From contig JAZSPB010000156.1 of the NCBI GenBank assembly GCA_045537235.1, positions 92,638 through 156,637 on the forward strand: 64,000 bases of DNA, given 5' to 3'. A program made the position numbers and the translations under genes. How positions within the stretch are numbered: the first letter of the stretch is position 1; the number at the start of each line of letters is the position of its first letter. Of this stretch, positions 46,198-62,176 are shown one piece after another. A model generated the notes under the pieces. It saw only the letters and a list, made by a program, of their open reading frames with translations. It was not told the DNA's origin and ran no database searches. The stretch is from Eubacteriales bacterium (GTDB taxonomy: Bacteria; Bacillota; Clostridia; Oscillospirales; CAG-272).

Positions 46198-46392
46198 GCG
46201 CCTGCGGGCGCAGAAGGTCGCTTTTTTGAAAAAAAGCTCCGCAAAAAACTTTTGTCGCTCGCTCTTATTATAGTTTGTGCAAACATAGCGTTATGCCGTA
46301 GTAGGCAGTGTGTTTGCGCTCACATTAACAAGGGCGTGTGATAAAGTTTTTGCGGAGCTTTTTTAGCAAATTTCGTCCTGCGGCCGCAGGCG
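46198..46392 (-). repeat. Long-hairpin intergenic repeat, copy A (opposite orientation to B-D by its central loop)
   Basis: The left arm is GCGCCTGCGGGCGCAGAAGGTCGCTTTTTTGAAAAAAAGCTCCGCAAAAAACTTTT. The right arm is its near reverse complement (AAAGTTTTTGCGGAGCTTTTTT...CCTGCGGCCGCAGGCG). The inner stem is GCAAACA/TGTTTGC. It sits between convergent gene ends. Confidence 0.85.
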
Positions 46393-46397
46393 TTTAA

Positions 46398-49300
46398 TTA
46401 TTTCAAAACAACCGTTTTGGTATCGATCACCTTTCCGGACAGATCCGTTAAGGTCACCGTAACCTCATCTCCACTCTTGGCGGTGATATCGGTTTCAATG
46501 ATAAAGTTTCCGGCAGTCTCAAAGGTGGTTGTATATTCCTTTGTGACACCGTTAGCTTTGACGGTAACCTTGTGAGAAGTCTCGTTGTGTCCGAGTTCCC
46601 AAACTTCCACACATATCTTGCCGTCCACCGAGATATCTGCGCCGTGAATGTTGGCATCGGACAAGGTGGCAAGGAACGGGAAGGCAGGCTGGCTAATGCT
46701 GTTCTCAAGGTTGCCTCCCAAGGTATCAGGTGCCCCTGACACCGCATAAGAGTTGACATAAGAATACTGAACTGCAACGGGATTCTTGATCGAGGTGGCG
46801 GTCACGACAACGGTATCTCCGACGATCGTCGCAGTGGCATCCACAAAGGTCTTGCCATTCGCACTGATCTTGAAGCCTGTCAGTTTGGTGTCGCCGTCCT
46901 TGATCTTAAGACCGTCGCCAATGTGTGAGAAGTGAAGGATGACTCGGTCTCCGTCTACCTCCATATACTCGTACATGGGACCGGTATATTCCGTCGTTCC
47001 TTCATAGTAGGTCTTGCCGTAAACAGTGGCGAGGATGGTCGCCGCCATACGGTTACCGACGGGCACCTTGGTTCCGGGATGAATGGTTCCACCCGTATCC
47101 TTGTCGTCAAAGGTTCCCTCGTATGCCGTAGAGATGACCTCCACATTGTTAAGACGTTTGGCGGTGTCGATCTGCACCTGGCGAATCTCGAAGAAGTTTC
47201 TTCCGCTACCCGCCGCGTACGGTGCCAACTGAACCAACATAATGGGAAGATTCTCATCTCTGAAATCCTCTCTCCATTGCTCGATCAAATCGTAAAGAAT
47301 GTAGTTGTACTGTTGAGCGATTCTGGCATTGGGTTGAGACTCACCTTGGTACCACATCACACCGGCAACGGCATAGTTGGCAAGGGGACCTTGCATTGCG
47401 TTGTACAGACCGGTGGGAGCAAATCTTCTTCCTGTGCTTCCCTCGGTACCGTTGATAAGGGTACCTGCCGCCTTGGTGGTTTTATAAATCTTTCCGAGAC
47501 TCCAGTAAAAATCGTAATCCTGCCACAGCGTTCTTCCCTCACAGCCCCAGTTATTTCTGACAGAGGGGAGAATGGAAGGATCGTTGTAGATAAATTCTCT
47601 GTCCGAAGCAAACAGCCGCTCATAGTTAAGCCATGCTTGCGCGGAGCTACCGCCCTCGTAACATTCGATAATTGCGACCGGCACTCCCAGCTCTGCTTGA
47701 ATCTGATAAGCAGAAATATAGGCAATTGCGGAAACACCGGAAACATTGGAAGCCGTGACCTGTTTCCATGCGCCGTTGGTAACGTCCTTTTGAAGCTCAT
47801 AGCTTGCCGTCACACCTATCTTAAAGCTTCTGACATCATAGTTTTTGGCACCCGAAACGATATCCGCTGTGTCAAAAACACTGCTCATTTTAAGCTCCAT
47901 ATTGGACTGACCGCTACAATACCAAACCTCACCGATGCCCACATTCTTGAAGGTCTTTCCCGCCACTCCGTTCTTGACCAAGAGCGTCTTGCCGGATCCG
48001 CCTTCCATTTCGGGAAGCTCTAAATAAAATTCACCGTTGGCATCTACCACTGAACTTGCGGTATATTGGTCGATCTCCGCCGTTATGGTATCACCGGGGG
48101 TTCCGCCCCAGCCCCAAATCGGCACTTTTTTATTTCTCTGCAAAACCATATCGTCCGCAAAAATGGACGGAAGTATTACTCCAATATTGGTATTCAGCAT
48201 AGCAAACTCCACCGTGAAATCATCAATATAAACTGTCTTGGGGAAATTGGTCGAAGAAGTTCCAAAGTTGATGAAGGGTCTTACGGGATAGTGTTCCTTG
48301 ATACTTGCATCATCAAAGACCAACTCGGTTTTTGATAGAAAATCCTTGGTGATATCCATCTCATATTCCACAAAAGTCCATTCACCCTCGTAAATATCAT
48401 AAGAAGTGTAGGCCAACTGTGTTGTCTTCTTATCTCCCATCAATCCGATAGACGAACTCACGGGCTTTGCGGGATCTTTAAAGCCCTCCATCAAAACATA
48501 AGCCGAGATCTTGACAGTCTGACCGATATAAGGTGTCAGATCCTTTGGCATCAGATTGTTGAGCTTGACTCTGGCACCGAAATCTCCGTTGGCGTTGGGT
48601 TGGAAATTATAAAGCGCCATTGCTTTGTCTCCCGAATGTGACTGCCAATTAAGCGCACCGACCTGAAGTAAGGAATTGGCGTAATTTCCGCCCATTTTAT
48701 ACTCATTGGCCGCATCGGTCAGCTCCGCATAAGTGGAGGTCTTATACTGAGTAAAAGAAGCATCGGCATTCTCAAAATCCTCGGTTTTATATACCGTATA
48801 CTCGGGCACATAGGCATCCTTGTGAAGAGAGGCCTTTACATCATCCACGTAGAAGGTACTGCAAAGATCGGATGCAGGTGCATCGACAGCCGCCGCTACG
48901 TTTTGGTCGATCTTGACCGTAATCAAGCCGGCAGCGGTATTTTCAGCGGTAACCTTATAGAACAAGGTGAGCTGATTCCATTCATTGGCTCGCAGCTCGA
49001 ACTTGTGCGACTCAGCCGCTGTATCGTCGGAGCCTTCTTTGGAAACCGACATTCTGAACGCAGCATTCTCACCGATCGGCATAACGTATGCGGTGATCTT
49101 ATAAGTCTTTCCGACATTTCTGGGGGTCATATACACCTCCAGAACATCCAAAACACCTACACCGCCATCAGCACTTGAAGATTCAACCTTGATGGATTGA
49201 TCTTTTGTACGAATATAAGCCTTGTCAGTATTGATGCTGACCTTGGCAGCGGGATTTCCCGCCACATAAAAGGGGTCGGGCTCCTTGTCGTCGCCGCCGG

Positions 49301-49475
49301 GAGCCGCTGTTTCAAATCCTTGTTCGGACTCCTCCGGATCGCTCTCACTCTCGCTCTCATTCGACTCGGATTCGGTGACCTCATGGGTATCCGTCTCGGA
49401 CTCCGTTTCTCCGCCGCAAGCGACAAAACTCAATAAAAGCGTGAATATCAAAAGAATGGATAATAGCTTTTTCAT
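46398..49475 (-). CDS. Large lipoprotein with N-terminal CBM-like beta-sandwich regions and a sialate O-acetylesterase-like (SASA/DUF303) domain
   Basis: Lipobox LLLSFVAC and an acidic linker. The SASA-type nucleophile motif GEVWYCSGQSNME and downstream GVMWYQGES are present. The C-terminal region is Ig-like. Confidence 0.75.
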   Translation of the reverse strand: MKKLLSILLIFTLLLSFVACGGETESETDTHEVTESESNESESESDPEESEQGFETAAPGGDDKEPDPFYVAGNPAAKVSINTDKAYIRTKDQSIKVESSSADGGVGVLDVLEVYMTPRNVGKTYKITAYVMPIGENAAFRMSVSKEGSDDTAAESHKFELRANEWNQLTLFYKVTAENTAAGLITVKIDQNVAAAVDAPASDLCSTFYVDDVKASLHKDAYVPEYTVYKTEDFENADASFTQYKTSTYAELTDAANEYKMGGNYANSLLQVGALNWQSHSGDKAMALYNFQPNANGDFGARVKLNNLMPKDLTPYIGQTVKISAYVLMEGFKDPAKPVSSSIGLMGDKKTTQLAYTSYDIYEGEWTFVEYEMDITKDFLSKTELVFDDASIKEHYPVRPFINFGTSSTNFPKTVYIDDFTVEFAMLNTNIGVILPSIFADDMVLQRNKKVPIWGWGGTPGDTITAEIDQYTASSVVDANGEFYLELPEMEGGSGKTLLVKNGVAGKTFKNVGIGEVWYCSGQSNMELKMSSVFDTADIVSGAKNYDVRSFKIGVTASYELQKDVTNGAWKQVTASNVSGVSAIAYISAYQIQAELGVPVAIIECYEGGSSAQAWLNYERLFASDREFIYNDPSILPSVRNNWGCEGRTLWQDYDFYWSLGKIYKTTKAAGTLINGTEGSTGRRFAPTGLYNAMQGPLANYAVAGVMWYQGESQPNARIAQQYNYILYDLIEQWREDFRDENLPIMLVQLAPYAAGSGRNFFEIRQVQIDTAKRLNNVEVISTAYEGTFDDKDTGGTIHPGTKVPVGNRMAATILATVYGKTYYEGTTEYTGPMYEYMEVDGDRVILHFSHIGDGLKIKDGDTKLTGFKISANGKTFVDATATIVGDTVVVTATSIKNPVAVQYSYVNSYAVSGAPDTLGGNLENSISQPAFPFLATLSDANIHGADISVDGKICVEVWELGHNETSHKVTVKANGVTKEYTTTFETAGNFIIETDITAKSGDEVTVTLTDLSGKVIDTKTVVLK

Positions 49476-49504
49476 AAAGATTCCTCCACTATATAATTGT
49501 ACTT

Positions 49505-49533
49505 ATTATAACATACGTCTCAAAAATATGCAA
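49505..49533 (-). promoter_or_regulatory. Sigma-A promoter of the esterase lipoprotein gene
   Basis: Minus strand: TTGCAT (49533-49528), 17 nt, TGtTATAAT (49513-49505). Confidence 0.65.
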
Positions 49534-49588
49534 TCGGTTTTGAAGTTTTTTGTATAACTTGCGAAAAATTTGTGCAAAAGAGCGAAAA

Positions 49589-49806
49589 GGGCGCCTGTGG
49601 GCGCGGGAGGTCGCTTTTTTGAAAAAAAGCTCCGCAAAAAACTTTTCTATTGCACCCTGCCGAATTTGAGCGAACATACTGCCCCCTAATGGGTATCGCT
49701 ATGTTCGCATAAACTACAATAAGGCGCAATAGAAAAGTTTTTGCGCACTTTCGAAGAAAGTGTGCTTTTCTTCAAAAAGCGACCTCCCCGCGCCCGCAGG
49801 CGCCCC
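49589..49806 (+). repeat. Long-hairpin intergenic repeat, copy B
   Basis: GGGCGCCTGTGGGCGCGGGAGGTCGCTTTTTTGAAAAAAAGCTCCGCAAAAAACTTTTCTATTGC ... GCGAACATA-loop-TATGTTCGC ... GCAATAGAAAAGTTTTTGCG...AAAAAGCGACCTCCCCGCGCCCGCAGGCGCC. It folds as one nested palindrome. Confidence 0.9.
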
Positions 49807-49818
49807 GAAGAAAACTTT

Positions 49819-50409
49819 TCAAAACAATGCTTTTAACTTTTGTCTGACTCTAAAAATTGCGTTATCAATAGATTTTTCACTTTTACCAAGCGTTCGGGCG
49901 ATCTCCCGCGAAGAACAACCGGCAACATAGGAACGCCACACCTTATTTTCGAAATCCGAAAGTGCTCGGTCGATGCGGCGGTTAAGTTCCCGCATTTCCT
50001 CGCGTTTGATAAGTGCTACGGCAGGATCCTCTTGATTCTCATGCTCGTCCGAAATCCAGTCCTCAGACTCAAGCGATAGCATCTCTGTTCCCTTGCGCTT
50101 TTTCATGGCACGAATTTGAGTAATCAAAGCGTTGTTCAAGCAAATTTTGGCATACAATCCAAAACTGACGTCATTTTGTCCCAAATCGTAAGATAAAATG
50201 GAATTATAAAAAACCAATGTCAACTCCTGCTTGAGATCCTCTGCATCTTGTTCGGTCACATCATTCCGCCAAAAGCGGTTGACAAACGAGGTGATAAGCG
50301 GATCATAAAGCTGCAACATCTCCTCAAAAGCCTCTTGATTTTCTTTTCGCACCTGCAAAATGAGATTTTTTACGATCTTATCGTAGGAATCGAACATCTC
50401 GCGCATCAT
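49819..50409 (-). CDS. Sigma-70 family RNA polymerase sigma factor (SigH-like)
   Basis: Region 2 (DAEDLKQELTLVFYNSI) and region 4 HTH (SSREIARTLGKSEKSIDNAIFRVRQKLK). It resembles SigH-type sigmas as I recall them. Confidence 0.75.
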   Translation of the reverse strand: MMREMFDSYDKIVKNLILQVRKENQEAFEEMLQLYDPLITSFVNRFWRNDVTEQDAEDLKQELTLVFYNSILSYDLGQNDVSFGLYAKICLNNALITQIRAMKKRKGTEMLSLESEDWISDEHENQEDPAVALIKREEMRELNRRIDRALSDFENKVWRSYVAGCSSREIARTLGKSEKSIDNAIFRVRQKLKALF

Positions 50410-50419
50410 GCCCTCCCGA

Positions 50420-50965
50420 TCAAGTAAATAAGTATCCGATTTTTCCGGTCAGCAACGCCACGTTTCCGCGATAGATCACATCGGGACGTTCCATATAAAG
50501 TTGCTTCATTCTCTCCACGCGGTTTTCGGTATCCACCACCATGGTGATCTCGAATATTTTTTCTTTTTTCTCGTAAAGTGTGCAAGTAAGATCAAAGCGA
50601 CCGTCCGAACGGCGCTCGGAGGCGCATCTGGCCTCAATTCCTCGCTTCTTGAAGTCCAAATAGCGGAATGCCGCCTCCAAGCTCTTATCCAAAATGGAGG
50701 AAAGAATATCACTGTGCAGCTCGCGTGCCACCAAACGACCTCTCTTGGTCACGGAATAGTACTTTTCCCCGTCCACCTCGGTGTATTCGATCAACTCGGA
50801 ATCCAAAAGCTCGTGAAAGCTCTCGGCAAAATCCAAATACATCACATAGTCGGTCTGCATAACAATGTCATTAATGGAAATAAAATCCAACGGATAATTG
50901 ATATTTTCCATCAAAAACAATACAAATATCTTTACATTTCTTTTCGCAATAACTCCTGCACCCAT
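50420..50965 (-). CDS. DUF4364 family protein (putative winged-helix regulator)
   Basis: 181 aa with a strong RBS (GGAAGGAG) before the ATG at 50965. The N-terminus KIFVLFLMENINYPLD resembles DUF4364 proteins. The family name is from memory. Confidence 0.55.
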   Translation of the reverse strand: MGAGVIAKRNVKIFVLFLMENINYPLDFISINDIVMQTDYVMYLDFAESFHELLDSELIEYTEVDGEKYYSVTKRGRLVARELHSDILSSILDKSLEAAFRYLDFKKRGIEARCASERRSDGRFDLTCTLYEKKEKIFEITMVVDTENRVERMKQLYMERPDVIYRGNVALLTGKIGYLFT

Positions 50966-51056
50966 AAAAAGCTCCTTCCTGAGCGGGATATGCCCTAAAA
51001 ATCCCCTTTTTCAATAATTATTTTACCATATTTCTATGTTTTTTTCAATAGTTTTA

Positions 51057-51085
51057 TTGCATTTGTCAGAAAAATATGGTATACT
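51057..51085 (+). promoter_or_regulatory. Sigma-A promoter of hom
   Basis: TTGCAT (51057-51062), 17 nt, TGgTATACT (51077-51085). Confidence 0.6.
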
Positions 51086-51117
51086 ATTCCTAATCTATAT
51101 TTTTTGTGAGGTATATT

Positions 51118-52335
51118 ATGGTAAACGTAGCCATTCTCGGATTTGGCGTAGTGGGTAGCGGAACCGCAGAGGTTTTGACAGAAAATCTCACGCTCATTGA
51201 AGCACGCATCCACAAAAAGCTGAACATCAAATACATTTTGGATCTGCGCGATTTCCCCGACAGTCCCTTTGCCGACCGCGTGATCCACGACTTTAATATC
51301 ATTCTTGAGGATCCCGAGGTAACGCTTGTGGCAGAGATGATGGGCGGTTCCCATCCTGCGTACGACTTTTCTATTGCCTGCCTTCGCGCCGGCAAGAGCG
51401 TAGTGACATCCAACAAGGAAGTAGTGGCTAACTTCGGTGACGAATTGCTGGCGGTGGCCAAAGAAAACAATGTACGTTATATGTTTGAAGCGAGTGTTGG
51501 TGGCGGCATTCCGATCATTCGACCTCTTGCCAACGACCTTGCGGCTAACCAAGTGCTTTCCATTGACGGAATTCTTAACGGAACCACCAACTATATTTTG
51601 ACGCAAATGGGCACCACCGGCGCTGCCTTTTCCGATGCACTCAAAGAGGCACAGGCCAAAGGTTATGCAGAAGCCAATCCTTCTGCCGACATTGACGGTA
51701 TTGATGCGGCACGCAAGATCACCATTCTCGCGGCTCTTTCTTACGGTGTTCTGTTAGATCCCAACAAGATCTACACGGAAGGCATTACCAAGATTACAAC
51801 CTCTGACATGAAGATCGCAAGCGAGTTGGGCTATGCAATCAAGCTGATCGGTCACTGCGAGAAGATCGGTGACAAAGTGCTTGCTATGGTCAGCCCCCGT
51901 CTCATCCCCGCAAGCAATCCTCTTCACACGATCGACGATGTGTTCAACGGCATTTTGGTTGATACCGATATGCTGGGTGCCACCATGTTCTACGGGCGCG
52001 GTGCAGGCAAGCTTCCCACGGCGAGTGCTGTGGTAGGAGACATCATCGACATCGCCAAAAGCCCCGAAAATGACCCCGCGTTCCCCATGTTCACCAAAGC
52101 TTGCGATTGTAAGATCGCAGATATCGCGGATTACCGTTGCCGCAATATGCTGGTATTGGAAGGAAATCTGAAGGAAAACGGTGCCGAAATAGACAGTTTG
52201 CCCGTTAAAGCTCTTGAGGTTTTCGTTGACAACGGAAGGACTGCGATCATCACGGAAGAAATCACCGAAAAGCAGTGCAGTGATCTTTGCACATCTCTCG
52301 GGGATAAGCTCCTTTCCCGTATCCGCGTTCTTTAA
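51118..52335 (+). CDS. hom: Homoserine dehydrogenase
   Basis: NAD-binding N-terminus VAILGFGVVGSG, catalytic-domain motifs (NGTTNYIL, EADP..DIDG.DAA.K) and a C-terminal ACT-like region. The start is at ATG 51118. Confidence 0.92.
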   Translation: MVNVAILGFGVVGSGTAEVLTENLTLIEARIHKKLNIKYILDLRDFPDSPFADRVIHDFNIILEDPEVTLVAEMMGGSHPAYDFSIACLRAGKSVVTSNKEVVANFGDELLAVAKENNVRYMFEASVGGGIPIIRPLANDLAANQVLSIDGILNGTTNYILTQMGTTGAAFSDALKEAQAKGYAEANPSADIDGIDAARKITILAALSYGVLLDPNKIYTEGITKITTSDMKIASELGYAIKLIGHCEKIGDKVLAMVSPRLIPASNPLHTIDDVFNGILVDTDMLGATMFYGRGAGKLPTASAVVGDIIDIAKSPENDPAFPMFTKACDCKIADIADYRCRNMLVLEGNLKENGAEIDSLPVKALEVFVDNGRTAIITEEITEKQCSDLCTSLGDKLLSRIRVL

Positions 52336-52380
52336 ATGAATATTTAAAAAGGCTGTTGCAAAAACAACAGTCTTTTTTGT

Positions 52381-52588
52381 GGGGGCGCCTGCGGGCGCAG
52401 GAGGTCGCTTTTTTGAAAAAAAGCTCCGCAAAAAACTTTTTTTGATGCGCCTTGGTAAAGTTTGAGCGAACATACAGCTTCCCTTTTGGGCGCCGCTATG
52501 TTTGCAAAAATTCATGAAAGGGTGCTTTAAAAAGTTTTGTGCTCTTTCGAAGAATGTGCTGTTTTTCTCAAAAACGACCGCTGCGGGC
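52381..52588 (+). repeat. Long-hairpin intergenic repeat, copy C
   Basis: GGGGGCGCCTGCGGGCGCAGGAGGTCGCTTTTTTGAAAAAAAGCTCCGCAAAAAACTTTTT ... GAGCGAACATA-loop-TATGTTTGC ... AAAAAGTTTTGTGCTCTTTCGAAGAATGTGC...AAAAACGACC. The left arm is nearly identical to copies A and B. Confidence 0.9.
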
Positions 52589-52609
52589 ATCTTTTGAAAG
52601 CAAAAAATA

Positions 52610-52638
52610 TTGATATCCGGAGTCATCTTTGGTATAAT
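52610..52638 (+). promoter_or_regulatory. Sigma-A promoter of the 133-aa gene
   Basis: TTGATA (52610-52615), 17 nt, TGgTATAAT (52630-52638). Confidence 0.6.
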
Positions 52639-52667
52639 GATGTAAATATTTCGAAAGGTAAAAAAAG

Positions 52668-53069
52668 ATGTTCAACAAATTTTTCGGTCATAACAAAAAA
52701 TGGTATGAAGATTGTAAAAAACTCATCGACGGCACGATTGCCATTCAAGACTTTATAAAACAAAATGCGACCGTAACGCTGTATTATTCCACTCCTTTCG
52801 GTGAAGATGCAAACGGTCGGCAGCAAATATGGGTGCTGTCCAATCGGAAAAATGAAATTCAACATTTCCCTGCATTTTCTTCCAAGAAAAAATGTGCCGA
52901 TTTCCTTTTAGCAATGGGAAGGAAAGACTTTATGATCATCAAGGGCGATCTAATTTCCTTATTGGATTCACTGAACGCTCATCCGCTTCTTCAAAAATTC
53001 GGTGTTGTGATCGATCCCAACTCTGATCTATCCGTTGCCATTGACCCGCAAATACGCGCGATTCATTAA
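52668..53069 (+). CDS. Hypothetical protein (possibly SseB-like)
   Basis: 133-aa ORF with its own promoter and RBS. The SseB-like suggestion rests only on a loose resemblance (PAFSSKKKCADFL...). Confidence 0.45.
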   Translation: MFNKFFGHNKKWYEDCKKLIDGTIAIQDFIKQNATVTLYYSTPFGEDANGRQQIWVLSNRKNEIQHFPAFSSKKKCADFLLAMGRKDFMIIKGDLISLLDSLNAHPLLQKFGVVIDPNSDLSVAIDPQIRAIH

Positions 53070-53154
53070 ATCTTTTCTCTCGCGTGGGAGCCATGCAGCA
53101 ATCGCCCTGCTATTAAAAAAGCGACCGATAAAACCGATCGCTTTGGAATTCTTT

Positions 53155-53940
53155 TTAGTTCATGAAATGAGCCTTGATGTAGTCGCAGCTGGTCTTGATG
53201 CTTTCCATTGCATCACCGGTTGCAAAGTTGGTGTCCTGCTCGACAACAAAGTCTTTGACGCCGATCTTCTCACCCAGAGGAATGATATCCTCAAAGTTGA
53301 TGTTACCGTTACCGATCTCGGTGATGTAAGGCGAATTGCCCTTCTCGCCGCCGCAAGCGCCCATATCCTTCAAGTGAAGAATATCTACGCGACCGGCCAA
53401 ACGCTCCATCATCTTTCTGACATCATATCCGCCGTGCTGTACCCAGTAGGTATCCAAAACGAAGCTGACATTGTCCTTATCAAAGCCCTCAATGAGGTAA
53501 TCCATCACGGTCTTGCCTTCGACTTTCTTGAACTCGAAGCTGTGATTGTGATAAGTAAACTTCATGCCGACTTTAGCCAGCTTTGCGGCGATATCATTGA
53601 CCTGATCAATAAAAGCAAGAATGGCCTCCTTGGAGGTACGAGCCTCACCGGGCATACTTCCAATACCCATATTGGTTGTTCCGAGAATCTTGTGAACCTC
53701 AATGGCCTCGTCCAAATTCTCAACGATCAGTTTCCAGTTATAGTGCGTACCGCAGATAGCAACACCTGCATTATCAGCGCACTCCTTGAAGTACTTTGCA
53801 CTCTCAATATCGGTAATCAAGCCTGCGGTCTGAACCGAATCGTAACCTGCGGCCTTGATCTTAAGGAACGCATCCTTGAGTCCTTCGGGGGTTCCGGTAA
53901 AATCACGAACCGTATAGATCTGAAGTCCTACGCTTTTCAT
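53155..53940 (-). CDS. Sugar phosphate isomerase/epimerase (xylose-isomerase-like TIM barrel)
   Basis: 261 aa with TIM-barrel family motifs (GLQIYTVRD, YHNHSFEF, HLKD). Confidence 0.78.
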   Translation of the reverse strand: MKSVGLQIYTVRDFTGTPEGLKDAFLKIKAAGYDSVQTAGLITDIESAKYFKECADNAGVAICGTHYNWKLIVENLDEAIEVHKILGTTNMGIGSMPGEARTSKEAILAFIDQVNDIAAKLAKVGMKFTYHNHSFEFKKVEGKTVMDYLIEGFDKDNVSFVLDTYWVQHGGYDVRKMMERLAGRVDILHLKDMGACGGEKGNSPYITEIGNGNINFEDIIPLGEKIGVKDFVVEQDTNFATGDAMESIKTSCDYIKAHFMN

Positions 53941-54120
53941 AATAATCCTCTTTCCACGGGAATTCCCGCTGTTTTATTGATAATTTTATTATAATGACCC
54001 CAATGGGAAAAGTCAAGTCTTTTTTTGCACTTTGGGAGAAAATAATTGCCAAGGTTATTGCAAATTTTATAAAATTCATGTATAATATATTGGTAACAAA
54101 GCGAAAAGGAATATCATATA

Positions 54121-54813
54121 ATGAAATATCGGACGATTTTATTGGATGCCGACGGAACACTTCTCGACTTTGTAAAAGCCGAACATGCTGCTCTTTCGGA
54201 TACACTTCGCCATTTTTCTCTTCCCGAAAGTGAATCGATCCACCGCGGATACTCCGAGGCCAATGCCGAGCAGTGGCTCCTTTTGGAAAAGAAGTTAGTG
54301 ACCGGCACACAGCTCAAAATCAATCGCTTTCAGTCATTTTGCAGTAAATTCAATTTTTCACAAGACGCAAAAGCCATGGCCGTCTACTATGAAAATGCTC
54401 TTTCTCGAAAGAGCTATTTGCTTAAGGGCGCGCAAAACATCTGCCGACTTCTTTCGCAACACTGTGAGCTTTTCCTTGTGACAAACGGATTTCAAAAAAT
54501 ACAAAGCACTCGTTTTTACGCCACTCCCCTGCCTCCCTATTTCAAAGGATGCTTTATTTCCGAGGAAATCGGTGTAGAAAAGCCGGATCCTCTGTTCTTT
54601 GAGCGAGTGGCACAGCGCATTCCCGACTTTGAAAAGAAGTCAACACTCATCGTTGGTGATTCCTTGTCCTCTGACATGGCCGGTGGAATCGGATTCGGCA
54701 TTGACACTTGCTGGTATAATCCTTCCGGCAAGGAACCGCCCGCCAATATGACGCTGACTTACATTATATCTTCGCTTTCGCAACTTCAACATATTATTCT
54801 ACGAGGTGAGTAA
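54121..54813 (+). CDS. HAD family hydrolase, YjjG/noncanonical pyrimidine nucleotidase-like
   Basis: DADGTLLDF nucleophile motif, VTNG, and GDSLSSDMAGG motif IV. Confidence 0.82.
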   Translation: MKYRTILLDADGTLLDFVKAEHAALSDTLRHFSLPESESIHRGYSEANAEQWLLLEKKLVTGTQLKINRFQSFCSKFNFSQDAKAMAVYYENALSRKSYLLKGAQNICRLLSQHCELFLVTNGFQKIQSTRFYATPLPPYFKGCFISEEIGVEKPDPLFFERVAQRIPDFEKKSTLIVGDSLSSDMAGGIGFGIDTCWYNPSGKEPPANMTLTYIISSLSQLQHIILRGE

Positions 54814-55722
54814 ATGTTCAACATATCCGCGCTCTGTGCAAAACTTAAAGAACTGAACATTCCCTACTGCGAATCGGTCCCCATGTCGGGATACACCACC
54901 ATGAAGGTGGGAGGCATCGCTTCTGTTGTTGCCGCAGTACGCTCTACAGAGCAATTGGTTACTGCCGTTCGGGAAGCCAAGGCGCACCAAGTGCGATTCG
55001 CCGTCATTGGAAACGGAAGCAATGTTATCTTTGCCGACGATGGCTTTGACGGGCTTGTCATCGTAACATCAGATATCAAAAATCACTTGGTGGAAGGAAA
55101 CACGATCAAGGCAGATTGCGGCGCATCGCTTACCGGGCTTGCTGTCGAGGCACAACGTGCCGGTCTTTCCGGGTTGGAATTCGCTTACGGCATTCCCGGA
55201 ACGCTCGGCGGCGGCATCTATATGAATGCAGGTGCTTACGGAGGAAGTCTTTCAGATGTGGTGATCTCTTCCATCTGCTTTGATACAGAAAACGAAACGG
55301 TGCGCAAGGTCGATATGGAGGAGCATGAATTTTCCTACCGTCACAGCATCTACACCAAGAATCCCAATCTCATTATTCTTGCCGCCATGCTCAAACTGAC
55401 CGAGGATAATCCCATTGAGATCGCCGCCATAATGAGTCAAAACAGAAAGGCGCGAAAGGAAAAGCAGCCCCTTGAATTTCCCAGTGCGGGGAGTGTTTTC
55501 AAGCGTCCTGTTGGATATTATGCAGGCGAACTGATCGAAAAGAGCGGTTTGAAAGGCTACCGTATCGGCGGCGCCGAGGTTTCGGAAAAGCACGCGGGAT
55601 TTATCATCAATCGCGGCGGAGCTACAGCCAATGACGTTATGCAATTGGTGGAGCACATCCGTCACACCGTCTATCGCAATTATCAAGTGGATCTTGACTG
55701 CGAGATCAAATTCATCCGATAA
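54814..55722 (+). CDS. murB: UDP-N-acetylenolpyruvoylglucosamine reductase
   Basis: FAD-binding PCMH domain (TMKVGG...IGNGSN) and a C-terminal domain with AGSVFKRP and GGA.VS.KHAGFIIN. Confidence 0.95.
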   Translation: MFNISALCAKLKELNIPYCESVPMSGYTTMKVGGIASVVAAVRSTEQLVTAVREAKAHQVRFAVIGNGSNVIFADDGFDGLVIVTSDIKNHLVEGNTIKADCGASLTGLAVEAQRAGLSGLEFAYGIPGTLGGGIYMNAGAYGGSLSDVVISSICFDTENETVRKVDMEEHEFSYRHSIYTKNPNLIILAAMLKLTEDNPIEIAAIMSQNRKARKEKQPLEFPSAGSVFKRPVGYYAGELIEKSGLKGYRIGGAEVSEKHAGFIINRGGATANDVMQLVEHIRHTVYRNYQVDLDCEIKFIR

Positions 55723-55724
55723 TT

Positions 55725-58013
55725 ATGAACTTGTTTTACCGAAGAAATTTAGCACTCTTTTGTGCATTGTTTGCAGTCGCTTGTATTGGCGGCTGCTTTT
55801 TGCAATCATGGATAAAATTGATGGTCGGTTTGATATTGTTCGGCTTTTCGGCGGTGCTGTTGTTATTGCTCATCTTTCTGAAACCGCACAGAGCCGCCTT
55901 TTTGAAGCTTCTCCTCTGTTTCGTTTTCATCGCTTCGGCACTTCTTGAATCCTATGCTTTCATCGATCGGAAAAAGGAACAGTTTGACTCGCTCATCGGA
56001 ACCGAAGCAGAAGCGGAATGCCTTATCGTCAGTCGAAAATACACTGCGGTCTACGCATCTTCCTTTGATGTGATCGCCAGCATAAACGGTATTTCCTTCA
56101 ACAGCATCCTCGACTGTGAGTATGCGGGAGATTTCTCCGTGGGAGATTTAGTAACGGGAACCGTCTCGGTCGCTCCCATCGGAGAAAAATATCAAAATAC
56201 CGACTACTATCTTGCCCGCGGAATCCGTGTTTATCTCACATCCTTCACCGATAGTCTCGAAACGGTCGAAACCGGCCTCGTCAATTTTTCCATCCAAATG
56301 CAACGTCTGAACACTCGTCTGTCACGCATCTTTGAGTTGGAGATCGGCGGTGATGAAGCCGACCTTGCCTCAGCGATCACACTGGGCAATAAAGATCTTT
56401 TGGCCAACGATATCGTCCGTGACTTCGGTCGCTGCGGACTTTCTCACATCCTCGCTATCAGCGGTATGCACCTTTCGATCATTATGACGGCATTGGAAGC
56501 ATTGCTCAACCGGATCGGGATTCGAAAAAAGTGGCGTTGCTTTTGGGTGTTCTCGATCGCGCTGTTTTTTCTTGCACTGACCGGATTTTCGCTCTCTACT
56601 GTCCGCGCATTCATCATGATGACCTTTGTCTATCTCGCGTCACTTGCACACGCGGATAATGACGCAATTACCTCCTTGTTTTTCTCGCTGTTCATCATTC
56701 TTGCCGTGTCTCCCGAATCGGTACATGACATCGGTCTTTGGCTTTCCGTACTTGCCGTCCTCGGCATTCTCGTGTTCAATGAGCTCAACAAATATTTCAA
56801 AAAGAAGCTGTATCAAAGCCACCTCAATAAACGTGCGGCAAAAATCCTGTTGTCTCTGATCTCGGCACTCGGCATTACGCTCGCCGTCAACATCTTTGTA
56901 TGCTTTCTTATTTGGTTGTATTTCGGTGAGCTTTCCTTGGTCGCCCCTTTGACCAACTGGGTCATCTCACCGCTTGCCAACCTATTTTTGTTTCTCTCGC
57001 CGATCAAGCTGATCACCTCGATCTTTTCGCCGCTCGCCTTTCTCTCACAGCCGTTGACGGAAGTCCTCCGCTTGATCGGCGGCTTGATGATCGATATCAT
57101 TGCCGAAATGTCTTCGTGGGAAAGCATTACGGTCTCACTGGAATATCGCTTTGCGGGCTATATCATTCTTCCCGCTTCCCTTCTTCTCTTGGTCTGTCTG
57201 ATCTTACCCTTACGGCGGAAAATATGGATCCCGCTTATCCCCACAGTCGCCTCTCTGATTTTTTGCGGGTGTTTGATGCACTATAACCACACCAATGCAG
57301 ACAAGATTACCCTTGATTTCTTATCATCGGGGGAATCCGAAATGATGGTACTGACAACAACCAAAGATACTGTAATATGCGATGTGTCGACGGGCGCCAA
57401 CAAATATCTGTATGAAGCCATTGCTTTTTCGGAACAACGAATGTCCACCGAGGTTTCAGCGCTGGTTCTCACGCACTATCATTCCTATCACATCAGCACA
57501 TTCTCCAAAAATGCAGACCGATTCATGATTCGAAAGCTATATCTCCCCATTCCGCAAAACGAAAACGAGCATTCTTTCATGCAATCGCTGATTAATGTTT
57601 CACAAAACAAAGGGATTGATGTGGTAATTTTTGACAGCAACAAACCACTCTCGCCCACCGAAAATATTACGTTGGAGTTGTCCGAGCGAGTTCTGCTTTC
57701 CCGCTCCACGCATCCGACCTTTGTTCTGACCGTCTCGGCATTTGGCGATCAGTTGACCTACATTGCCGAATCGGCACACGATTCCGAAATACTCCGAGAA
57801 AAGGCCTCGCGGGAGATTGAAACGGCGGACTATGTGATCTTTGGCACACACGGTCCGATTACCAAGACTGATTTTTCTTACGAAGGGTTATCGGACAAGC
57901 AATATGTAGTTATTTTTGACGAAAATGTATTGTCGCATTTTGATCCGAGTGACACACGAAATTTGATCGTTGAATCTTCTGTCGTTACGTTCCGTTTTGA
58001 GGCAGATGATTGA
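55725..58013 (+). CDS. comEC: DNA internalization-related competence protein ComEC/Rec2
   Basis: 762 aa with N-terminal TM/DUF4131-like, central competence-channel domain (GLSHILAISGMHL) and a C-terminal metallo-beta-lactamase-like domain. Confidence 0.88.
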   Translation: MNLFYRRNLALFCALFAVACIGGCFLQSWIKLMVGLILFGFSAVLLLLLIFLKPHRAAFLKLLLCFVFIASALLESYAFIDRKKEQFDSLIGTEAEAECLIVSRKYTAVYASSFDVIASINGISFNSILDCEYAGDFSVGDLVTGTVSVAPIGEKYQNTDYYLARGIRVYLTSFTDSLETVETGLVNFSIQMQRLNTRLSRIFELEIGGDEADLASAITLGNKDLLANDIVRDFGRCGLSHILAISGMHLSIIMTALEALLNRIGIRKKWRCFWVFSIALFFLALTGFSLSTVRAFIMMTFVYLASLAHADNDAITSLFFSLFIILAVSPESVHDIGLWLSVLAVLGILVFNELNKYFKKKLYQSHLNKRAAKILLSLISALGITLAVNIFVCFLIWLYFGELSLVAPLTNWVISPLANLFLFLSPIKLITSIFSPLAFLSQPLTEVLRLIGGLMIDIIAEMSSWESITVSLEYRFAGYIILPASLLLLVCLILPLRRKIWIPLIPTVASLIFCGCLMHYNHTNADKITLDFLSSGESEMMVLTTTKDTVICDVSTGANKYLYEAIAFSEQRMSTEVSALVLTHYHSYHISTFSKNADRFMIRKLYLPIPQNENEHSFMQSLINVSQNKGIDVVIFDSNKPLSPTENITLELSERVLLSRSTHPTFVLTVSAFGDQLTYIAESAHDSEILREKASREIETADYVIFGTHGPITKTDFSYEGLSDKQYVVIFDENVLSHFDPSDTRNLIVESSVVTFRFEADD

Positions 58014-58390
58014 TGACACCTGTGGCAGGGAGAGGGACACTTTTTTGAAGCCGCGTTTTCACATCCATCGGTTGATTTTCAGCAAAGTCGGATAGGGCAA
58101 ACGGTTTGAACGTGCTAAATAAGGCTTTCTCCGAGAGGAAGCTGTCGCTGTAGGCGATTGAGGGAGACTGCGCAACCTTGTCATTTGTGCTCTTGATATG
58201 GCAAGTTCTCCCCGCTTGTGCCGCAAACTCCTTCCGTCACGGCTACGCCGTGCCACCTCCCTCTCGGAGGTAGGCTTTTGCTCACCATTTTGCGAGTGCT
58301 AGCTCATCAATAAATCCAAATTCAAATACATCAAATCGTATGACAAATTAAATTAGAAATCAATTCCAAGAATCCTTCATCTAATATGAA

Positions 58391-58576
58391 AGAGCCTTTG
58401 AAAAAACTCCGCAAAAATCTCTTGTCTTGCCCCCATGGTAGTGTTTGAGCCAACATACTGCTTCCATTAGGATATCAGTATGTTTGCCAAAACTACCAAA
58501 AAGAGCAGATCAAAAGTTTTTGCGGAGTTTTTTAGAGCAACAGACATTTTACAAAATGTCCTAATGCCGAAGGCGC
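58391..58576 (+). repeat. Long-hairpin intergenic repeat, copy D (shorter; outer GC-rich ends degenerate or absent)
   Basis: GAGCCTTTGAAAAAACTCCGCAAAAATCT...GTTTGAGCCAACATACTG-loop-CAGTATGTTTGCCAAAACTA...AAAAGTTTTTGCGGAGTTTTTTAGAGC. A weak match to the outer arm lies at 58558-58576. Confidence 0.8.
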
Positions 58577-58637: not shown

Positions 58638-61600
58638 TTAATCAAAACATTTGAGCGTCGGAGCCTGACCGTTTACGATGTTCCAAATCTCGGGGTCAAA
58701 ATACAAGGTGTTGAGAAGGAAATCTTTACTCAAAAGGACGGAAGTTGCCTTGGCTTCGCCTGCGGTACAGGTGGGGGTTACAGTGGTGTTGTTCTGTGCC
58801 ACATTTGCTTGATTGGAGTAATAGCAAGAAAGCACTGTTCCTTCTGTTTTTCCAAGGAACTTACCATAACCGACAGCAAGAGAAAAATTAACATCGCCCA
58901 AAGAAAAACATTTGGTGACAACCGCGCCGGCCTCATTATTGCCTACAAAACCACCAAGATAACCGCTGTCAGTTACAGCATTCAGAATGTTGACGGAAGT
59001 ATATACATTCTTTATAATTGCCTTATCTCCACTATTTAATCCAACGGCACCACCGCTGCAATTATATACACCATAGTCGCTATTTATTTGAGTGTTTGTT
59101 CCCGTAGAAAAGCTATCAAGAAGTGTACCGCGGTTTTCTCCAATCAATCCACCACTCCAATAGTTCTTTCCGGCATTTCCAACATATTTTACATCAAACG
59201 AAATATCCGCCATACATTCTCTAACTATAGCGGTTTCATCCGCTGTATTTTTTCCTACAATACCTCCAAGTACTAACTCCAAATGAGACCAACCAGCGGT
59301 ACCAACTGAAGACGATTTTGTTCCAACCAAAATGAACTCTGCTTCGCTCTTTTCAACAACATTTGTATTTAATCCTGCAATTCCACCAAAATAGGCATAA
59401 CAATAAATACTATATTTGTAATAACTACTCGTATATAGATAAATAGCCGAATCTACAGCGACTTCAAGGTGGCATTCGGAAATAACTCCATTATTGGTAC
59501 CAGCGACACCGCCCAAAATTGCTTGCCAATTCACTGCCCCATAGTGTTCAGAGTTATACGTATAGTCTATCTTGGCTGAAAGCACATCACAATTAATAAT
59601 ATTTCCTTCGTTAATACCGGCAATTACTCCCGTATTAGTGGAACTTACAGAATTGTTGGTTGTCGTTAATAAAACATTCTCGAATCCAACATTCTTAATC
59701 GTACCACTATTCACTCTAAAGAACCCAACATCAATTGCCGTGGTGGAAAGGGCGGATATAGCAAAGTTGTAAATCTTAAAACCCTTACCATCAAACGTAC
59801 CCGTAAACTTATCAATCGGTGTCCAGATATCGCCCTTGTAGTTAATATCGTTCCCCAGCACATAATTGCCCGACGGATTGGTTGCGATCGCGGCAAGCTC
59901 TTCGGCGGTCTTGATCACGATCATCTCGCCGCCCAACATCTTTGCGTAGATCGTGGTACTGGCATTCAGTGCATAGTCAAATTTATATTCTTTGGTAAAG
60001 GCACTGTCAAGATACCATCCCAAGAAAGCATAGCCACTCTTTACGGGATCGGCGGGTTTCGTGGGGATCTCGCCCTTATAAACCCCTTCGCTTGCGATCT
60101 GGGTTCCGCCGGCGGTGTTATAGGTGACAGTATACATCTGCTTAACATACTGCGCCTTTACCGTCATGTCAGCCTTCACCGAGCTGAATGACTTATCCCA
60201 TCCGCTGAAAGGGATATCGTTTACATAAGAAGGCATAGAGGGCGCCTTGGCAGACGTTCCGTAGTCAACACTCTGCACACTCACAACCTCGCCGTAATAA
60301 TCCAAGAAGGTCACCTTTACTTTGTTCGGTGTCCATCTTGCCACAAGCTTCATGTCGCCCATCACGGGATCGGTGGTAGTAAAGATACCGTCAACTACCG
60401 TCTTTCCCGTATACCAACCGTCAAAGGTATATCCCGTCTTGGTCGGCACGGTGAGGGCAACTGTTTGTCCGTGATTCACCTTGACACTGGACTGGTAACC
60501 TGCGGCGGCTGTACCTCCATTCAGGTCAAAGGTTACGGTATGCTTCAACAGACCGCCCGAAATAAATTCCTCTATCCATTGTTCTTCGGTTCCTGTATAG
60601 GAAGGATTCTTTTCAATATAAATTTCATAAGCGGACTTTCCGGGGGTACCTTGTGCACCTGCGGCACCTGTGGCTCCCGTATCACCCTTATCTCCCTTAT
60701 CTCCCTTGGCTCCATCCTCACCGTCCTTGCCGGTTGCTTGAACGTCAAGAGATGTCCAATTTTTGCCGCCATCGTAGGAAACTTCCCACATATTGGTGGT
60801 CTTATTGATCTTGATCTGAGGGGTAATACCATCGGTTCCGTCTTTTCCGTCTTTTCCGTCTTCGCCACGGTCTCCCTTATCGCCCTTATCGCCCTTATCG
60901 CCCTTGGCGCCGACAAGAGAGGTCAGCCACTGGGACTCGCTGCCCTTGTAGCCATTCTCCACGGCAAGCTCGTAGGCAGACTTTCCGTCCTCGCCATCCT
61001 CGCCGTCCTCACCGTCATTTCCGTTCTTACCGTTGGTTCCGACCAAAGACGCAAGCCATTCCTGCACATCGCCCTTGTAGCCATTCTCAACAGCAAGCTC
61101 GTAAGCCGACTTACCTGCCGCACCGTCTGTTCCGTTAACGCCTGCCGTTCCAACAAGCGAGGCAAGCCACTCTTCTTCGGTACCCTCAAAGCCAAGCTCA
61201 ACAGCAAGCGCATATGCAGACTGTCCGTCTTTTCCGTCGGCTCCCTTTTCTCCAACCAAGGAGGTCAGCCAAGACCGAATATCGCCTTCATAACCGTTTT
61301 CCACGGCGATCTCATAAGCGGATTTACCCGCCGCACCGACAAGCGATGCCAGCCAATCGGTCTCGGAGCCTTCGTAGCCTTTTTCCACGGCAAGCTCATA
61401 GGCAGAAGTACCGCCAGCGCCTGTTGCACCCGTTTCACCGACCAAAGAAGCCAGCCATTCGGTCATGGTTCCGCGGTAGCCGTTTTCCAAGGCCAACTGA
61501 TAGGCGGATTTTCCGTCGGCACCCACATCCCCCTTGTCACCTTTATCACCCTTATCGCCCTTCGCAGCGGCTGTTCCATCACGACCTACAAGTGACGCAA

Positions 61601-62132: not shown

Positions 62133-62176
62133 CGTAATGACCTCCTTTTTGAATTTCATAGAGGATGTCACTCCAG

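Follow-up and report, generated by a model that had tools for sequence, protein, structure and literature searches.

The window, the whole 64-kb stretch of DNA analysed, contains four nested palindromes (copies A–D) of 155–218 nt, which are its longest local inverted repeats. In the list of local inverted repeats for the window, seven of the 25 pairs, and the top four by length, fall within these copies. The 18-mer GCTCCGCAAAAAACTTTT, with up to three mismatches allowed, occurs seven times in the window compared to 0.18 times in shuffled sequence (none of 100 shuffles reached seven); six of the seven matches are inside copies A–D. A profile of the arm run over the 64 kb matched sites A–D only. 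The first-pass annotation had placed a repeat at each of these sites and all four are present. Its start for copy D (58391) holds, while the end that it gave (58576) takes in an unrelated small hairpin at 58543–58560; the true end is 58545. The copies and their parts are as follows.

46198–46392, no strand: copy A, a complete, nearly symmetric nested palindrome in the gap between the ABC-transporter gene (+) and the SASA-esterase gene (−)
46216–46253, plus strand: left core cassette of copy A, GGTCGC T6 G A7 GCTCCGC A6 C TTTT
46279–46318, minus strand: centre hairpin of copy A, an inverted homologue of the B, C and D centres
46342–46380, minus strand: mirror cassette (right arm) of copy A, its outer half degenerate
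49589–49806, no strand: copy B, best preserved of the hairpins, lying past the sigma-factor gene (−) and ahead of the SASA gene (−)
49609–49646, plus strand: core cassette of copy B
49665–49710, plus strand: centre of copy B, TTTGAGCGAACATAC, a small apical hairpin, then GCTATGTTCGC
49743–49765, plus strand: side hairpin of copy B, GCGCACTTTC-GAA-GAAAGTGTGC followed by TTTTCTTC, replacing the GCGGAGC of the right arm
52381–52588, no strand: copy C, left arm intact, right arm decayed or truncated, inserted just past the terminator native to hom, the homoserine dehydrogenase gene
52403–52440, plus strand: core cassette of copy C
52463–52510, plus strand: centre hairpin of copy C
58391–58545, no strand: copy D, divergent and without GC-rich ends; A6, ACTCCGC, a long hairpin, GCGGAGT, T6
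58443–58493, plus strand: centre hairpin of copy D

The palindrome is layered: a GC-rich end hairpin, where present, is outermost; next come the strongly conserved A/T-tract cassette and a self-complementary stem that evolves fast; the innermost layer is a conserved centre hairpin. The outer hairpin, GCGCCTGCGGGCGC, does not have a GTAG-type head; it is missing from copy D, as had been described, and from most relatives. The inverted arms of A, B and D are 38–45 nt long and 71–79% complementary, and the right arm of C has decayed. The left arms of A, B and C, previously called nearly identical, show 1–4 differences over the left 56 nt. The side hairpin reported for B and C is intact in B and is found in degraded form in C (52539–52561). 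Copy A is indeed inverted relative to the others, its centre matching the reverse complement of the B, C and D centres. Mirror cassettes, in which two inverted units form one hairpin, occur in copies A and D and in the relative L144. The single strands of A, B and D are predicted to fold with energies of −104.8, −128.6 and −74.1 kcal/mol (z = −10.4, −13.8 and −9.2 versus shuffles); for the decayed copy C z is −2.1. In each of B, C and D, the strand that carries the nearest upstream gene gives the better fold. Only spurious open reading frames of at most 69 aa overlap copies A–D, and a conserved reading frame is excluded by run lengths that vary by single bases between copies.

The conserved unit is the cassette and not the whole hairpin, a point missed in the first-pass annotation. 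It is an A/T-rich segment of 34–37 nt, GGTCGC-T5/6-G-A6/7-GCTCCGC-A5/6-C-TTT, nearly letter-for-letter constant across phyla. We checked whether the four window copies might be the only ones, with no relatives elsewhere; instead, a genome scan located the arm with its cassette at at least 106 loci in many genomes, several per genome. The cassette is multi-copy in Clostridia, in Desulfoluna isolates and in metagenome-assembled genomes (MAGs) of Acetobacteraceae, Omnitrophota, Aminicenantes and Bacteroidota; one genome with an identical cassette is that of a GC-rich Acetobacteraceae. The elements that host it differ in their outer inverted repeats and interiors, its sharp GGTCGC boundary is abutted by at least six different sequence contexts, and a Desulfobacterota family with the ends GCCTCCGGCGG...CCGCCGGAGGC exists both with and without it. 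Subfamilies of 230–330 nt are 70–90% identical at non-orthologous loci in different genomes. The cassette is thus shown to be an exchangeable module, carried in several phyla by elements whose outer inverted repeats differ. This suggests that it spreads horizontally and that a conserved factor recognises it. In 16 of the 21 listed whole contigs shorter than 8 kb the cassette is at most 350 nt from an end of the contig, as would be expected if assemblies broke at the repeats.

The copies had been described as lying directly after stop codons. The exact placement is as follows. Copy A occupies all of the space left by a convergent pair of stop codons, at distances of 8 and 5 nt. Copy B ends 13 nt from the sigma-factor stop codon, and the SASA-esterase start codon lies 113 nt downstream of its left end. 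Copy C starts 45 nt past the hom stop codon and is preceded by an intact native hom terminator (52345–52378). Copy D is 62 nt from the stop codon of a collagen-like gene but 378 nt from that of ComEC. Five related species (homoserine dehydrogenase 76–88% identical), which jointly cover sites A, B and C, share the gene order and have plain terminators of 40–50 nt with no cassette at these sites. This comparison shows gain of the repeat in this lineage. Copy C is present in all three other contigs of the same species, and no strain-level polymorphism was seen among them. An origin of the centre hairpin from the native terminator at site A was considered, as the relative L231 shares GGGCAGTATGT and ACATACTGCC there; the GCGAACA motif, however, is also found after the cassette in other Clostridia.

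Confinement of the four copies to 12.4 of the 64 kb, noted earlier, has a chance of roughly 0.03 (an estimate, 4 × (12.4/64)^3) and is suggestive only. The region from 46 to 62 kb contains genes without counterpart in the relatives: two open reading frames at 52668–53994, a larger SASA gene and the collagen-like gene. Exact-protein look-up of two window proteins returned no record. If the copies were structure-specific recombination sites of the integron attC or folded Xer type, bounding exchangeable gene cassettes, their clustering around lineage-specific genes would be explained; they also follow genes and combine conserved ends with a variable, paired middle. We nevertheless consider this very improbable. 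The copies contain no attC core sites (R''/L'', L'/R', GTTRRRY) and are not uniformly oriented, and no integrase is found in the window region or near the at least 106 loci listed. Moreover, the genes between the copies (sigma factor, DUF4364, hom, MurB and ComEC) are housekeeping genes that are syntenic in the repeat-free relatives.

Copies A, B and D are each the sole hairpin-plus-T-run structure between their flanking genes, and for this reason probably also serve as bidirectional terminators. The suggested terminator role fits their anatomy of A-run, GC-clamped hairpin and T-run. Copy A reads A7-GCTCCGC...GCGGAGC-T6; in copy B the side hairpin runs into TTTTCTTC and, on the other strand, the hairpin is followed by T7. 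A GC-rich stem with a T-run, the mark of a bidirectional terminator, is therefore found on each strand. In one subfamily all five members lie about 10 nt past a native terminator. At the 58 loci where both neighbouring genes could be called, 25 gene pairs are convergent, 29 tandem and 4 divergent.

Exact 8-bp direct repeats flank the inverted ends of four of 112 elements (L190 twice, L222 and L208), indicating that at least some elements were made by transposition. Among the 112 there were no 7- or 9-bp repeats, and none with flanks displaced by 9–12 nt. No target duplications were seen at window copies A–D, in agreement with the first-pass annotation. The duplications fall in elements with three different outer inverted repeats, thus the mobile unit may be the host element rather than the cassette. 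Outer repeats among cassette-bearing elements include GTAAC..., CAGGG... and AAATTCCGGTTT...; those starting GTAAC or GTAAG belong to L190, L189, L207, L241 and L144, and those starting (G)CAGGG to L190 and L222. The combination of GTAAC/GTAAG ends and 8-bp repeats occurs in some Desulfobacterota and Acetobacteraceae-like relatives and not in the window copies. The ends of IS66 start with GTAAGCG and are accompanied by 8-bp repeats, while those of ISAs1 start with CAGGG and are accompanied by a 10-bp repeat (PMC11946415). The beginnings and 8-bp duplications of some relatives thus resemble those of MITEs derived from IS66 or ISAs1. The terminal match extends to only 4–5 bases, however, the same interior carries different outer ends, and the window copies have neither such ends nor such duplications. 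We did not find IS66 genes (tnpA/B/C) or an ISAs1 transposase with ends of this kind.

All-against-all clustering of 2340 open reading frames and Pfam scans of 150 neighbours identified housekeeping genes only, with no transposase, integrase or other recurrent protein near the at least 106 loci listed. No RAYT family was among the 25 commonest of the 137 Pfam families in the 150 neighbouring open reading frames, a ranking in which single-member families may not appear. A full-length parent element was likewise not found in viral contigs, which yielded short elements or chance matches and, with a looser pattern, chance matches only (L001–L120). A metagenome scan with the centre motif gave two chance matches inside an integrase gene. 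The elements share several hallmarks of MITEs: they are short (below about 600 bp) and non-coding, have terminal inverted repeats and are dispersed in multiple copies with variable presence. No autonomous parent with matching ends emerged beside the at least 106 loci or in viral contigs, and 8-bp target duplications were seen at four of the 112 related elements.

We put the probability at about 0.6 that the four copies are non-autonomous, mosaic palindromic repeats of the MITE/REPIN type, placed in trans, settling at gene ends and terminator-like in design. The MITE/REP-like reading offered in the first-pass annotation is supported by multiple non-coding copies with inverted ends, their absence from orthologous sites and the 8-bp duplications in related elements elsewhere; the terminator fit is supported as well, and the structured-RNA alternative gained no support. 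The repeats probably represent a mobile, non-coding family, apparently undescribed; literature searches by sequence turned up no relevant papers for the cassette, for the T/A-run motif or for the right-end module of Desulfobacterota elements. In the mechanism we envisage, an enzyme supplied in trans would place new copies, and these would settle or persist in the short non-coding stretch past genes, beside intrinsic terminators or replacing them. The layout of A-run, GC-clamped long hairpin and T-run should halt transcription from both sides; such a two-sided stop would account for the ability of copies A, B and D to take the place of the native terminator. Counting against this reading are the lack of target duplications at the window copies, their presence in only four of 112 relatives, and the failure to find a transposase or other recurrent protein near the loci or a full-length parent in viral contigs. 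Two further observations weigh against it. The A/T-rich 34-mer is conserved across phyla more strongly than the ends of MITEs usually are, and the joint change in run length, (5,6,5) in 68 elements and (6,7,6) in 30, is not explained by simple transposase binding.

The replacement of native terminators at A, B and D is also compatible with REP/BIME-type structural elements that are maintained by the host and currently immobile, selected as bidirectional terminators, insulators, mRNA 3′-end stabilisers or nucleoid-protein sites. Such elements would spread slowly, through recombination or template switching between hairpins. The location at gene 3′ ends and in convergent gaps, the strong conservation of the cassette, the stems that vary yet remain paired and the lack of target duplications in the window copies are all in keeping with this possibility, as are the mosaics of Anaerotruncus, where the motif lies among several unrelated modules as in BIMEs. 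We regard it as rather unlikely. The elements are missing at orthologous sites in all five related species and so are not needed there, horizontal spread accounts better than a vertically inherited host function for identical cassettes in distant phyla, some relatives have 8-bp target duplications, and there is no strand or orientation preference.

That the copies are structured non-coding RNAs or cis-acting 3′-UTR elements, with the cassette as a functional loop and the stems as covarying helices, appears improbable. The folds are very stable, those of B, C and D favour the strand of the nearest upstream gene, and the stems differ yet pair, with double changes at four of the 31 consensus pairs among copies A–D. 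Paired changes are also explicable by template switching from arm to arm, which yields them in DNA palindromes too. Rfam 15 returned no matches at the gathering score for the window or for the elements in 18 related loci; at E ≤ 10 the window gave chance-level matches only, the best being generic hairpins resembling plant microRNA precursors. Folding is better on the cassette-sense strand in 47 elements and on the opposite strand in 48; in tandem contexts the transcribed strand is the better in 10 and the opposite in 11. Mismatches across about 100 elements comprise 37 G·T and 44 A·C, with no excess of wobble pairs, and no orientation bias to neighbouring genes was detected at the 58 loci. The elements are also high-copy and variably present. 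The absence of bias in strand folding, mismatch type and orientation, together with that of an Rfam match, favours a MITE/REPIN-like DNA repeat over a structured RNA. Strand-specific RNA selection was rejected after three negative tests, the agreement in three of three window copies being absent in 21 other loci.

Other candidate functions of the cassette were tried and set aside. A promoter (TTGAAA, a 17–18-nt spacer and a −10 box) was discarded as there is no consistent −10 box past the cassette, which also speaks against the structured-RNA reading. A small open reading frame or frameshift site (TTG-AAA-AAA..., with A AAA AAG as slippery site) conflicts with run lengths that vary by single bases; the TGA of the motif is the stop codon of a gene in 10 of 111 cases, which was counted against this idea. 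Likeness to an SOS box, boxA or the CRISPR I-C repeat is too weak or low in complexity.

Returning to the MITE/REPIN-type reading, the closest parallel is with the RAYT-mobilised REPIN/REP-BIME repeats of Proteobacteria. Both are short, non-coding and multi-copy, with inverted arms that form a long hairpin, small-hairpin ends and mosaic modules; both lie after genes or between convergent genes, are linked to termination and mRNA stability, and have arms that remain complementary while diverging. A REP unit, however, is a GC-rich imperfect palindrome of 20–40 nt with a GTAG-type head, a form not found here, where A/T-rich homopolymer runs are punctuated by G/C. REP families are species- or genus-specific, whereas this cassette crosses phyla; no RAYT gene was seen, and 8-bp target duplications such as those of some relatives are not a product of HUH-type RAYT or IS200 chemistry. 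The Correia (Neisseria), ERIC/IRU (Enterobacteria) and RUP/BOX/SPRITE (pneumococcus) elements are also intergenic, 100–250 nt long with inverted ends, form long hairpins when transcribed, occur both complete and with internal rearrangements, and are able to end or destabilise transcripts. We know of no sequence similarity to any of them. The window copies do not have their typical TA or other short duplications, and the nested layers, hypervariable perfect inner hairpin and cross-phylum cassette set the present repeats apart from their descriptions. The order of A-run, GC-clamped stem, loop, stem and T-run between convergent genes is that of a bidirectional intrinsic terminator, but the "stem" here is 60–90 bp, has internal loops and conserved blocks, and is repeated at unrelated loci and in different phyla.

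For the annotation of gut Clostridia, such repeats explain oversized intergenic gaps and broken assemblies, and where they take over the job of a terminator operon boundaries are affected. Small bacterial repeats are normally lineage-specific, and a cassette nearly unchanged in Clostridia, Thermodesulfobacteriota, Alphaproteobacteria, Bacteroidota, Omnitrophota and Aminicenantes is for that reason unusual. This means that either a mobilising machinery has been transferred broadly and not yet tied to these sequences, or a portable regulatory module hitch-hikes on several transposon families. Either way, the cassette provides a defined sequence with which the enzyme or factor that recognises it can be sought. 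We suggest only tentatively that the cassette is a self-contained portable module, moving between unrelated miniature elements and phyla by means of a widely distributed DNA-processing system. A transposase, primase or recombinase that acts on the folded A/T hairpin might be its recogniser, and the window copies would then be a local branch of a pan-bacterial class of elements with its own mechanism. The homopolymer runs of the cassette co-vary in length, and the right-end module of the Desulfobacterota elements is 97–100% identical, over about 30 nt, to a non-coding stretch in more than 120 gammaproteobacterial plasmids; together these hint at plasmid-borne spread. The matching stretch, CGTTTGGCCCCCGGCAGGGCCGCCGGAGGC, lies near the replication region of the plasmids.

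The four long palindromes that the first-pass annotation had proposed in the window are real, layered structures. Allowing up to 3 mismatches, the window has 7 occurrences of the 18-mer GCTCCGCAAAAAACTTTT against 0.18 in shuffles, an arm profile run over the 64 kb matches at the four copy sites only, and the four longest local inverted repeats of the window are those of the copies. Folding z scores are −10.4 (A), −13.8 (B) and −9.2 (D), and −2.1 for the decayed copy C. Taken together, these measures place the repeat far beyond chance. The copies are located as follows.

46198-46392: copy A, which occupies the whole space separating two convergent stop codons
49589-49806: copy B, 13 nt past the sigma-factor gene
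52381-52588: copy C, behind the intact terminator of hom (homoserine dehydrogenase)
58391-58545: copy D, 62 nt past the collagen-like gene

Copy D had been drawn to 58576, which takes in an unrelated small hairpin; it stops at 58545. The outermost layer is a GC hairpin, GCGCCTGCGGGCGC, found in A, B and C only, in line with the earlier remark that D is without GC-rich ends. The second layer is the cassette, GGTCGC T6 G A7 GCTCCGC A6 C TTTT, which A, B and C share letter for letter. The third is a stem whose sequence agrees only to about 60% among copies, self-pairing being kept inside each one. At the centre sit TTTGAGCGAACATAC, a small hairpin and GCTATGTTCGC; this centre runs in the opposite orientation in A, which was indeed described as inverted. 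In B and C a small hairpin takes the place of the right-arm GCGGAGC; this is the extra side hairpin already noted there. The flanking genes are ordinary Clostridia chromosomal genes (two ABC transporters, SASA esterase, sigma factor, DUF4364, hom, MurB, ComEC and a collagen-like surface protein).

The gene order is conserved in contigs of five related species, whose Hom proteins are 76-88% identical. In these species nothing but simple terminators stands at sites A, B and C, and no cassette was found in their contigs (about 150 kb); the copies were therefore gained in the source lineage. Three further contigs of the source species all have copy C, and no strain-level polymorphism was seen at its site in these three. 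At the position orthologous to site A, one relative (L231:5476-5512) carries only a 45-nt bidirectional terminator with the stem ACACATACTGCC / GGCAGTATGTGT, which has GGGCAGTATGT and ACATACTGCC (10-11 nt) in common with the centre of the window copies. In another contig (L238:8335-8715) the loop of a terminator that is simple in L237 holds an unrelated insert, palindromic and some 390 nt long, with AGTGATATT repeats; the filling of terminator hairpins by long palindromes thus seems common in this bacterial group. A close relative without the cassette has a GC-rich hairpin, GTAGGGGCG...CGCCCCTAC, with a GTAG head that looks REP-like (L244:1186-1233).

The copies belong to a large multi-copy family. 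Scanning one genome per species for the cassette gave at least 106 loci, nearly all with an upstream GTCGC-T-run-G beyond the bases required by the pattern, so the loci are homologous and not chance matches. Carriers among the matches listed include many Clostridia MAGs, and several of the listed loci share a genome. Further carriers are the isolates Desulfoluna spongiiphila and D. butyratoxydans (Thermodesulfobacteriota), Acetobacteraceae, Omnitrophota and Aminicenantes MAGs, and Tidjanibacter (Bacteroidota). This strictly conserved cross-phylum cassette is the part worth following up. Of the 21 whole contigs shorter than 8 kb among the matches listed, 16 have the cassette no more than 350 nt from one end, an assembly effect expected of high-copy repeats. 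A Gut-1 RNA (Rfam RF01706, 53 bits) was noted at L202:5946-6024, about 2.9 kb from a cassette-bearing element and outside it.

Most elements have a single strong cassette and a different opposite end. Members of subfamilies 230-330 nt long share 70-90% identity when compared between genomes, although their loci are unrelated. One subfamily from Clostridia is bounded by outer inverted repeats of its own (AAATTCCGGTTTAxCGGGGAGGGG), with the cassette just inside them and then a perfect hairpin whose sequence is unrelated from copy to copy; all five members lie about 10 nt past a native terminator. The Desulfobacterota family, with ends GCCTCCGGCGG...CCGCCGGAGGC, occurs with and without the cassette. 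The sharp GGTCGC boundary is adjoined by at least six different sequence contexts, small hairpins can stand in for the middle GCTCCGC, and the three homopolymer runs co-vary in length, being (5,6,5) in 68 and (6,7,6) in 30 of 112 elements. The cassette thus acts like a module that can be exchanged. On an Anaerotruncus colihominis plasmid (L227, NZ_CP094683) a variant with GCCTCGGC in its middle stands at no fewer than five gene ends (among them 12333-12365, 13598-13628 and 32375-32446), joined with other repeat modules into mosaics. The TGA stops of the ade, radical-SAM and PfkB genes fall within its T6-TGA-A7 motif, and behind it come tandem GC-rich units, ACAGGCTGCGCCGCAAACAGTGGGGCGGG. The module at the right end of the Desulfobacterota elements, GTTTGGCCCCCGGCAGGGCCGCCGGAGGC (noted at L190:317-524), matches a non-coding stretch in 121 plasmids with 97-100% identity over 27-34 nt; most of these plasmids are from Klebsiella, Aeromonas, Citrobacter, Enterobacter and Pseudomonas. 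In both plasmids examined the match is in non-coding DNA (L250:2501-2530; L251:2501-2534), in L251 about 350 nt from iterons adjoining repA. These matches suggest that such modules spread by way of plasmids.

A structured RNA had been offered as an alternative to a MITE- or REP-like repeat. Paired changes do exist among the four window copies; DNA palindromes can also gain these through arm-to-arm templating, and they are thus no proof of RNA. No Rfam family matched. The sense strand, oriented by the cassette, folds better in 47 elements and the antisense in 48; in 21 tandem-gene contexts the transcribed strand folds better in 10 and worse in 11. Mismatches in long stems are 37 G·T and 44 A·C, and orientation to neighbouring genes is even. 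A DNA-level element is accordingly favoured, and the RNA alternative is left unsupported. The elements lie preferentially at gene ends (25 convergent, 29 tandem, 4 divergent).

Exact 8-bp direct repeats stand just outside the inverted ends of 4 of 112 elements (L190 twice, L222 and L208), with near-cases at L189 and L207. The 112 elements gave no 7- or 9-bp cases, and no 8-bp repeats when the flanks were displaced by 9-12 nt. Some family members thus carry transposition footprints; at A to D we found no target duplications, as first reported. The ends of these elements start GTAAC, (G)CAGGG or TATAGCC. Those of IS66 start GTAAGCG with 8-bp repeats and those of ISAs1 start CAGGG (PMC11946415), a resemblance that may serve as a lead. 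No transposase or other recurrent gene was found near the at least 106 cassette loci. A scan of viral contigs gave five short elements and no parent element. Two of these contigs (L241 and L078) carry a symmetric cassette-bearing element with ends GTAAG(A/T)AAGCGGTCGC, which at the same viral locus in L242 has lost its right mirror arm through internal deletion.

Small palindromic intergenic repeats are a known class, of which this family is a new, modular variant. Placement near terminators would be the work of a trans-acting enzyme. The succession of A-run, GC clamp, long hairpin, GC clamp and T-run would stop transcription from both sides, and A, B and D could thus occupy the sites of plain terminators in relatives.

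Directly past copy C, between hom and a HAD-hydrolase gene, two ORFs of 133 and 319 aa (52668-53994) gave no Pfam match and are missing from relatives. Between ComEC and copy D, about 380 nt (58014-58390) hold no convincing ORF and an imperfect inverted repeat (58121-58144 / 58254-58277), and may be a gene remnant. The 1177-aa surface protein (58638-62171, minus strand) combines collagen GXY repeats with Listeria-Bacteroides repeats and a GLUG motif. Its gene, with many internal DNA repeats, stands in place of the sugar-ABC/Bmp operon found 3′ of ComEC in all relatives.
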